Shown here: piece after piece, positions 10,503 to 11,950 of the stretch
Position numbering within the stretch: the stretch's first letter is position 1
Layout of the letters: every line of letters starts with the position of its first letter
Virus record (IMG/VR): IMGVR_UViG_2547132280_000005
Reading direction: 5' to 3' (one strand)
Source: a virus
Taxonomy: Duplodnaviria; Heunggongvirae; Uroviricota; Caudoviricetes
Length of the DNA: 19,798 bases
Position numbers and translations under genes: made by a program
The notes under the pieces: generated by a model
Databases searched by the model: none
Seen by the model: only the letters and a program-made list of their open reading frames with translations
Told to the model about the DNA's origin: nothing

Positions 10503-10577
10503 TCAGGCTAGACGCATCGCGCGACCTTCGGGAACTAAATCCCCTTTCCAGCTATAAAGCGAAGCCAAACGAATACC
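10503..10577 (-). pseudogene. dicC: dicC-like (cro-type) gene, 3' segment separated from its 5' segment by IS629
   Basis: Minus-strand frame continues from the N-terminal segment across the target duplication: GIRLASLYSWKGDLVPEGRAMRLA*. Confidence 0.55.
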
Positions 10578-10631
10578 TGAACCGCCCCGGGAATCCTGGA
10601 GACTAAACTCCCTGAGAAAGAGGTAAACAGG

Positions 10632-10958
10632 ATGACTAAAAATACTCGTTTTTCCCCCGAAGTCCGTCAGAGGGCGATTCGTATGGTTCTGGAAAGTCAG
10701 GGCGAATATGACTCACAGTGGGCGGCAATTTGTTCCATTGCCCCAAAGATTGACTGTACACCGGAGACTCTGCGTGTCTGGGTACGCCAGCATGAGCGGG
10801 ATACCGGAGGCGGTGATGGCGGGCTCACCACCGCTGAACGTCAGCGTCTGAAAGAGCTGGAACGTGAAAATCGTGAACTGCGCCGCAGTAACGATATCCT
10901 TCGCCAGGCTTCCGCTTATTTTGCGAAGGCGGAGTTCGACCGCCTCTGGAAAAAGTGA
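10632..10958 (+). CDS. IS629 OrfA (HTH DNA-binding part of the transposase)
   Basis: 108 aa [30 protein letters not shown]...; ends in an AAAAAG run where the IS3-family -1 frameshift into orfB occurs. Confidence 0.9.
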
Positions 10959-11845
10959 TGCCACTGCTGGATAAGCTGCGTAAGCTGTACGGGGTCGGAC
11001 CGGTATGCAGTGAACTACATATTGCCCCGTCAACGTATTACCACTGTCAGCAACAGCGACATCATCCTGATAAACGCAGTGCCCGTGCGCAGCGCGATGA
11101 CTGGCTGAAGAAAGAGATACTGCGCGTATACGATGGGAATCATCAGGTATACGGTGTGCGTAAAGTCTGGCGTCAGTTGTTACGGGAAGGAATCAGGGTA
11201 GCCAGATGTACAGTGGCGCGCCTCATGGCGGTTATGGGACTTGCCGGTGTTCTCCGGGGTAAAAAGGTCCGCACTACCGTCAGCCGGAAAGCCGTTGCCG
11301 CAGGCGACCGCGTAAACCGTCAGTTTGTGGCAGAACGTCCTGACCAGTTGTGGGTGGCTGATTTTACTTACGTCAGCACATGGCAGGGGGTCGTCTATGT
11401 GGCGTTCATCATTGATGTGTTTGCCGGATACATCGTGGGGTGGCGGGTCTCATCGTCTATGGAAACGACATTCGTGCTGGATGCTCTGGAGCAGGCGTTA
11501 TGGGCCCGTCGACCGTCCGGCACAGTCCATCACAGTGATAAAGGTTCTCAGTATGTATCGCTGGCCTACACACAGCGGCTTAAGGAAGCCGGATTACTGG
11601 CATCAACAGGAAGTACTGGTGACTCGTATGACAACGCGATGGCGGAGAGCATCAATGGCCTTTACAAAGCGGAGGTAATACACCGTAAGAGCTGGAAAAA
11701 CCGGACAGAAGTGGAGCTGGCCACACTCACGTGGGTGGACTGGTATAACAATCGACGATTGCTGGGAAGGCTGGGCCATACTCCTCCGGCAGAAGCAGAA
11801 AAAGCTTATTATGCTTCCATCGGAAACGATGATCTGGCAGCCTGA
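10955..11845 (+). CDS. IS629 OrfB (DDE transposase catalytic domain)
   Basis: 296-aa ORF in the -1 frame relative to orfA; contains DDE-type integrase-core motifs (WVADFTY..., ...HSDKGSQY..., ...DNAMAES...). Confidence 0.9.
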
Positions 11846-11887
11846 GTTCACAGATAAAACACTCTCCAGGAAACCCGGGGCGGTTCA

Positions 11888-11950
11888 ACCTGCTGCTTGT
11901 GCAAGTTTTGTTTTTGAACCGAAATACAAAAGAGCGTCAGTTTTAAGCAT
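11888..11950 (-). pseudogene. dicC: dicC-like gene, 5' segment (21 codons) truncated by IS629
   Basis: Minus-strand ATG at 11950; MLKTDALLYFGSKTKLAQAAG matches the DicC N-terminus as recalled; divergent from dicA. Confidence 0.6.

Follow-up and report, generated by a model that had tools for sequence, protein, structure and literature searches.

An IS629-type element in a shortened dicC of the cryptic prophage Qin in enterotoxigenic Escherichia coli TW11681

The stretch of DNA considered here (19,798 nt, hereafter the window) corresponds to the cryptic prophage Qin in enterotoxigenic E. coli (ETEC) TW11681, located between an ISCro1 element and rspB, and the 2,151-nt stretch surrounding the insertion was found to be 100% identical to the TW11681 chromosome (NZ_CP035855.1). 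The strain has been used as a human ETEC challenge strain. Within the prophage, the Cro-like gene dicC is split by an insertion sequence next to the repressor gene dicA, and between ydfV and the 5' end of dicC the following features were identified, whereby RefSeq (PGAP) calls are given alongside:

10301-10510, plus strand: 5' fragment of ydfV, first 70 of 101 codons, cut by a deletion (K-12 alignment); RefSeq/PGAP: partial ydfV, "ydfV, missing C-terminus"
10503-10577, minus strand: distal dicC fragment, codons 22-43 followed by Ala and TGA (100% identity to the K-12 dicC interior)
10509-10510: breakpoint at which 1,615 bp of the K-12 sequence are deleted, 2-nt microhomology TA (K-12 alignment)
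10509-10580, minus strand: RefSeq/PGAP partial "transcriptional regulator"
10575-10577: left copy of the target duplication, ACC (single ACC in K-12 and in five empty-site genomes)
10578-11887, plus strand: IS3-family element, IS629-group isoform (96.2% to the BP-4795 IS629 over 1310/1310 nt)
10578-10602, plus strand: left terminal inverted repeat, 25 nt, 92% complementary to the right repeat
10632-10958, plus strand: orfA, 108 aa (HTH_Tnp_1, PF01527, 46.6 bits)
10632-11845: RefSeq/PGAP "IS3 family transposase, programmed frameshift", intact, joined CDS
10913-11029, plus strand: frameshift-stimulating ALIL pseudoknot where orfA and orfB overlap (full-length Rfam match, RF01497, 116.2 bits)
10955-11845, plus strand: orfB, 296 aa, DDE integrase core (rve, PF00665, 95.2 bits; HTH_21, 64.2 bits)
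11863-11887, plus strand: right terminal inverted repeat, partner of the left repeat
11888-11890: right copy of the target duplication, ACC (same basis as the left copy)
11888-11950, minus strand: proximal dicC fragment, codons 1-21 (translation MLKTDALLYFGSKTKLAQAAG, then stop); RefSeq/PGAP: partial dicC, "dicC, missing C-terminus"

The transposase and both dicC pseudogene fragments are already annotated in the public RefSeq record of TW11681, and the feature as such is an ordinary strain-specific IS insertion in a pseudogene of a cryptic prophage. IS629 of E. coli O157:H7 was reported to reside mostly in prophage DNA, as the element described here likewise does; IS629-type insertions in such DNA are routine and the TW11681 case is of little weight alone.

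The element (10578-11887) is complete and comprises exactly 1,310 bp. Its 25-nt terminal inverted repeats (TGAACC...GGTTCA) are complementary at 23 of 25 positions and carry the 5'-TG...CA-3' ends of the IS3 family (TGAACCGCC...GGCGGTTCA). Also the coding layout is that of the family, with an HTH-containing orfA and a DDE (rve) orfB which overlap at 10955-10958, where a programmed -1 frameshift is predicted to join them, and so is the short target duplication (3-4 bp in the family), which reads ACC/ACC in the prophage and GTC/GTC on a plasmid. Each of these properties is shared with IS629 as known from O157:H7 and Shigella, i.e., the length of 1,310 bp, the TG...CA ends, the imperfect 25-nt inverted repeats, the orfA/orfB overlap at the frameshift pseudoknot, the DDE (rve) OrfB and the 3-bp target duplication. 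When compared with IS629 copies annotated in Stx phages, 95.8% DNA identity was obtained over all 1,310 nt, while OrfB is 97% identical to that of BP-4795 at the amino acid level (10 of 296 residues differ). In ISfinder practice, an isoform matches its reference in length, with a nucleotide identity of at least about 95%. IS629 subtypes were described to be 4-5% apart, with IS1203 and IS3411 being treated as isoforms (PMC3271280), so that an identity of 95.8-96.2% falls within the published subtype spread and, judged by sequence, "IS629-group isoform" would be the accurate name, the PGAP name being only generic. The sequence-only reading, which had proposed a complete 1310-bp IS629 with both inverted repeats, is supported as regards a complete element of the IS629 group, approximately 96% identical in DNA to annotated IS629. 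A copy identical to the chromosomal element is found on the 90-kb plasmid pTW11681_90 (301-1610, adjoining traC, with a GTC duplication) as well as on plasmids of related ETEC strains, among them strain 504239, whose chromosomal dicC site is free of the IS; these plasmid copies are plausible donors of the chromosomal insertion. The 2,151-nt query, which mostly consists of the IS, matched 15 places in the TW11681 chromosome, which hence holds multiple IS copies or fragments.

When read on the minus strand across the IS flanks, the two dicC pieces form one ORF of 44 codons, consisting of MLKTDALLYFGSKTKLAQAAG and IRLASLYSWKGDLVPEGRAMRLA followed by a stop codon, and it had been proposed to rejoin the flanks in silico and to compare the product with DicC. 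This comparison yielded the expected match, as residues 1-43 are identical to K-12 DicC in 43 of 43 positions and the ORF scores 34.2 bits against the Pfam family P22_Cro (PF14549; cutoff 30.2). The claim that the rejoined ORF represents dicC holds, however, only for residues 1-43 of the 76 residues of the native protein, the rest having been deleted, and the Ala codon and stop codon with which the ORF ends are antisense ydfV sequence. While full-length DicC covers positions 2-57 of the 60 positions of the P22_Cro profile, the rejoined ORF covers only positions 2-41, and a complete P22_Cro domain is consequently not encoded. In an alignment with P22 Cro (1RZS), DicC residues 1-59 pair with its residues 1-58, and the residues missing from the pre-IS allele (33/76) correspond approximately to P22 Cro residues 43 to 58; this alignment together with the shrunken Pfam match indicates that roughly the final third of the P22-Cro fold is removed by the deletion.

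The extent of the deletion became evident from the alignment with K-12, in which window positions 7404-10510 align through ydfV nt 210 with 99.9% identity and positions 10509-10579 align to the interior of dicC, whereby positions 3108-4722 of the K-12 comparison locus are absent from the window. Removed are the 3' end of ydfV, flxA, ydfW, ydfX and dicC codons 44-76, and ydfV is fused to dicC. The IS in turn splits dicC after codon 21, where a TGA provided by the IS terminus closes the reading frame to yield a 21-aa peptide. Full-length K-12-type dicC was detected in 841 genomes (at 80% coverage or more) and the shortened allele in six, and no second K-12-type dicC was found in the TW11681 chromosome at megablast sensitivity. 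By its sequence, dicC of TW11681 is to be regarded as a pseudogene rather than as a functional family member, and one ORF reading across the flanks of an IS is no proof that a whole gene was present before the insertion.

Upstream of dicC, the control region and the genes of the switch are found, and rem is located at some distance within the same prophage:

9055-9306, minus strand: rem, DicA antirepressor, intact (83/83 aa identical to K-12)
11965-11984: DicA operator Oc, 20 nt, variant CTGTTAGTTATAACTAACAA (K-12: TTGTTAGTCATAACTAACAA)
11983-12011, minus strand: dicC promoter-like site TTGACT-17-TATCTT, overlapping Oc (consensus scan)
12034-12441, plus strand: dicA, intact repressor gene (identity to K-12; RefSeq/PGAP: dicA)
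12442-12607, plus strand: dicA-ydfA intergenic region with dicBp and operators (identical to K-12)
12608-14203, plus strand: dicBF operon
12608-12763, plus strand: ydfA (protein identical to K-12)
12765-13340, plus strand: long ydfB-type ORF, 191 aa (phrog_35040 match over the full length)
13601-13652, plus strand: dicF (full-length Rfam match, 76.7 bits)
13827-14015, plus strand: dicB (protein identical to K-12)
14012-14203, plus strand: ydfD (3 substitutions relative to K-12)

As in the K-12 Qin prophage, whose DicA/DicC switch is analogous to P22 C2/Cro and lambda CI/Cro, dicC and dicA are arranged divergently around Oc with dicBp downstream of dicA. Gene order and intergenic sequences agree with those of K-12 apart from two SNPs, both of which reside in Oc. 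DicA is identical to its K-12 counterpart in 135 of 135 residues (HTH_3, 60.8 bits), in line with the earlier statement that an intact dicA lies beside the split dicC. Identity to K-12 extends also to dicBp, ydfA, dicF and dicB, and Rem is present, as are RelB, RelE and HokD proteins identical to those of K-12. The locus differs from that of K-12 in that dicC is cut to codons 1-43 and then split by the IS, Oc carries two substitutions, the genes flxA, ydfW and ydfX are missing, and ydfB/ydfC are represented by another allele. In the latter, 520 bp (12863-13382) replace 399 bp of K-12, reaching from ydfB codon 34 to a position upstream of dicF; this replaced ydfB 3'/ydfC segment is a common allele which was found in 793 of 5,426 genomes. 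The ydfA-dicF-dicB-ydfD operon had been described as intact, which is correct insofar as YdfA, DicB and dicBp are identical to K-12 and DicF is matched in full length by its Rfam model, but has to be qualified for YdfD with its three substitutions and for the exchanged ydfB/ydfC allele. From the PGAP annotation, which gives a partial ydfB and nothing at 12866-13827, a broken dicBF operon could be read; this was rejected, as the allele is common and its 191-aa ORF has a full-length phrog_35040 match, and the partial-ydfB call looks like an artefact of K-12 being used as reference. An unannotated 106-aa hydrophobic ORF on the minus strand (13002-13322), antisense to the ydfB-type ORF, was matched by neither Pfam nor PHROGs and probably does not represent a gene.

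The sequence of Oc, the binding of DicA to it and its overlap with the dicC promoter were defined in K-12 (PMC3441716). In the window, Oc differs from K-12 by the substitutions 11965 T>C and 11973 C>T, whereby one change removes the outermost symmetric pair and through the other the central 18 nt become fully symmetric, so that the variant contains a perfect 18-nt palindrome (11966-11983). The operator palindrome, which had been called intact, is hence present, but not in its K-12 form. Among 727 genomes with the intergenic region, the variant was found in only six, and these six are also the genomes with the ydfV-dicC deletion. Of the five substitutions that separate the window from K-12 within 4,153 near-identical nt, two fall into the 20-nt Oc (approximately 2e-4, as calculated post hoc). 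Since the six genomes probably belong to a single clone, the co-occurrence of Oc variant and deletion may reflect mere shared ancestry; this lineage-specific pair of Oc substitutions accompanying the loss of dicC is the only point of the locus that is mildly unusual. The substitutions could shift DicA binding in either direction. The dicC promoter-like site, whose overlap with Oc agrees with the K-12 description, would now serve for no more than the stub of 21 codons and for transcripts that run antisense into the IS. With regard to an outward IS promoter towards dicA, the consensus scan returned no plus-strand promoter-like site in 11800-14300, while read-through from the transposase gene towards dicA is conceivable.

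Two questions were addressed for the locus, namely whether the IS entered by simple transposition and in which order the two lesions of dicC arose. Concerning the former, the ACC flanks had been proposed to be a target duplication. At the homologous K-12 site the flanks are contiguous and contain one ACC (GAATACCTGCTGC), and a 460-nt empty-site query, from which the IS and one ACC had been removed in silico, was matched over its full length with 100% identity in five other E. coli genomes (504239, 67-1, WS1933D, S1-NGR-02-A and record LR883000). The identical IS on pTW11681_90 is flanked by GTC/GTC, and a target duplication of 3-4 bp was reported for IS629 (PMC3271280). The plasmid copy and the empty sites substantiate the proposal and rule out that ACC belongs to the IS termini. 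An agreement of 3 bp may occur by chance in 1 of 64 cases and the deletion junction is only 68 nt away from the left IS end, which would fit an ACC match by coincidence and an element that arrived by rearrangement, be it inter-IS recombination or an IS-mediated adjacent deletion. As the flanks are contiguous with exactly one ACC in K-12 and the five empty-site genomes, and as the deletion junction occurs without the IS, this explanation is refuted and its remaining probability is next to nil. The same junction in IS-free genomes also rules out that the IS caused the nearby deletion. With the 2,151-nt query, a coverage of 80% or more was reached in only three of 5,426 genomes, and TW11681 alone did so as one collinear piece; the IS at the dicC site was found in no other genome.

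Concerning the order of the lesions, the deletion is present in all five IS-free genomes, whose dicC is called a C-terminally shortened pseudogene by PGAP, and strain 504239 differs from the window, the IS aside, by one mismatch and one gap over approximately 17 kb. Considering that five near-identical ETEC genomes carry the deletion but not the IS, parsimony suggests that the deletion most likely preceded the IS. Very probably, therefore, two lesions would have destroyed dicC, an older, shared deletion and a subsequent IS insertion, specific to TW11681, into an already dead gene. The sequence-only reading had implied another cause, in that a functional dicC would have been lost through the IS629 insertion, with the Qin switch becoming fixed in repression as a result. 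This is compatible with the position of the cut, which follows codon 21, lies upstream of the region for the recognition helix and leaves a 21-aa stub, and with a pre-insertion ORF that scores above the P22_Cro cutoff and retains the helix-turn-helix; if DicC(1-43) with its predicted helix-turn-helix kept activity, the IS would be the decisive lesion. Yet the pre-insertion allele lacks 33 of 76 residues, PGAP calls dicC a pseudogene in the IS-free relatives and full-length dicC is the norm elsewhere (841 genomes), which together render this scenario unlikely. The implied cause was not upheld, as removal of the IS does not restore dicC, codons 44-76 having gone earlier. A reversed order would be obtained if the IS-free genomes were revertants, in which an IS that entered before or independently of the deletion was later precisely excised, e.g., with the help of the IS-excision enhancer (IEE). 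IEE-promoted excision of IS629 is documented (PMC9397093; bioRxiv 10.1101/2023.06.07.543989) and the identical IS on the 504239 plasmid places the element within the lineage. However, five genomes, with India among their places of isolation, are scar-free with a single ACC, which would demand one ancestral excision or repeated perfect excisions, and the IS-bearing state is known from only one genome; a history of this kind is regarded as very unlikely.

Following the preferred order, deletion before insertion, the history of the locus would start with an illegitimate deletion of 1,615 bp at a 2-nt microhomology, which would have taken place in an ancestor common to at least five other sequenced ETEC genomes. 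What then remained of dicC would have been codons 1-43 of 76, whereby the helix-turn-helix was kept and the last third of the P22-Cro fold was lost. Subsequently, an IS629-type element already resident in the genome is assumed to have inserted after codon 21, in the line of TW11681 alone, duplicating ACC, and by analogy with the IS3 family this would have occurred by ordinary copy-out, paste-in transposition. The IS thus most likely landed in an existing pseudogene, and its insertion, in a gene already dead, was most likely neutral with regard to selection.

For the switch, this suggests a lineage without functional DicC in which DicA, the operators, dicBp, dicF, dicB and Rem would be intact. 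DicA of K-12 acts as repressor of dicBp and dicC and, from Oc, as activator of its own gene (PMC3441716). Deletion of dicC in K-12 lowered the proportion of dicBp-ON colonies from 1.16% to 0.04%, i.e., approximately 30-fold, and weakened the induction by urea and heat, with basal dicBp activity being unchanged (PMC10448788). In O157:H7, deletion of dicC lowered dicB mRNA (PMC6915034). TW11681 would be a natural counterpart of these engineered strains (PMC10448788, PMC6915034), with the Cro-like protein lost and the repressor kept, but differs from them in that its loss of dicC arose naturally and in two steps, in an ETEC background. By analogy with the K-12 and O157:H7 experiments, which agree with it, it is reasonable to assume that loss of DicC biases the switch towards repression, and the switch of the TW11681 lineage should rarely or never latch in the dicBF-ON state. 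The DicA antirepressor Rem derepresses even in K-12 lacking dicC (PMC10448788). Of the earlier statement that the switch is locked in the repressed state, the bias towards repression fits the dicC deletion data, while "locked" is too strong, since Rem is intact, DicA is temperature-sensitive and K-12 DicA can be inactivated without DicC. Transient derepression by Rem or heat should accordingly stay possible, if the analogy to K-12 holds.

Together with its five relatives, TW11681 provides putative natural dicC-null strains with intact dicA, dicF, dicB and rem and an altered Oc, and these six strains could serve as natural controls for the bistable-switch model of K-12 DicA/DicC. It is quite unlikely that Oc substitutions, dicC shortening and IS insertion mark a stepwise selection of the ETEC lineage to disable the ON state of the switch. 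If this were nevertheless true, it would amount to a natural taming by the host of a toxic cryptic-prophage switch, whereby dicF and dicB stay available through Rem.

Elsewhere in the prophage, a complete IS3 of 1,258 bp (18213-19470; TGATCTTACC...GGTAGGATCA) resides in the Qin integrase gene intQ, flanked by a TAT target duplication; this IS3 is common to strain 504239 and hence older than the IS629-type insertion. Retained at positions 15064-17247 are an exonuclease gene in its full length of 2.5 kb and an excisionase gene, where K-12 has an IS2E-associated ydfE/insD remnant, which indicates that Qin is less decayed here than in K-12. Finally, two cspA thermoregulator RNA matches were identified on the minus strand (2833-3217 and 5727-6119, with 114 and 159 bits), located upstream of cspI and cspB, the cold-shock genes of the prophage.
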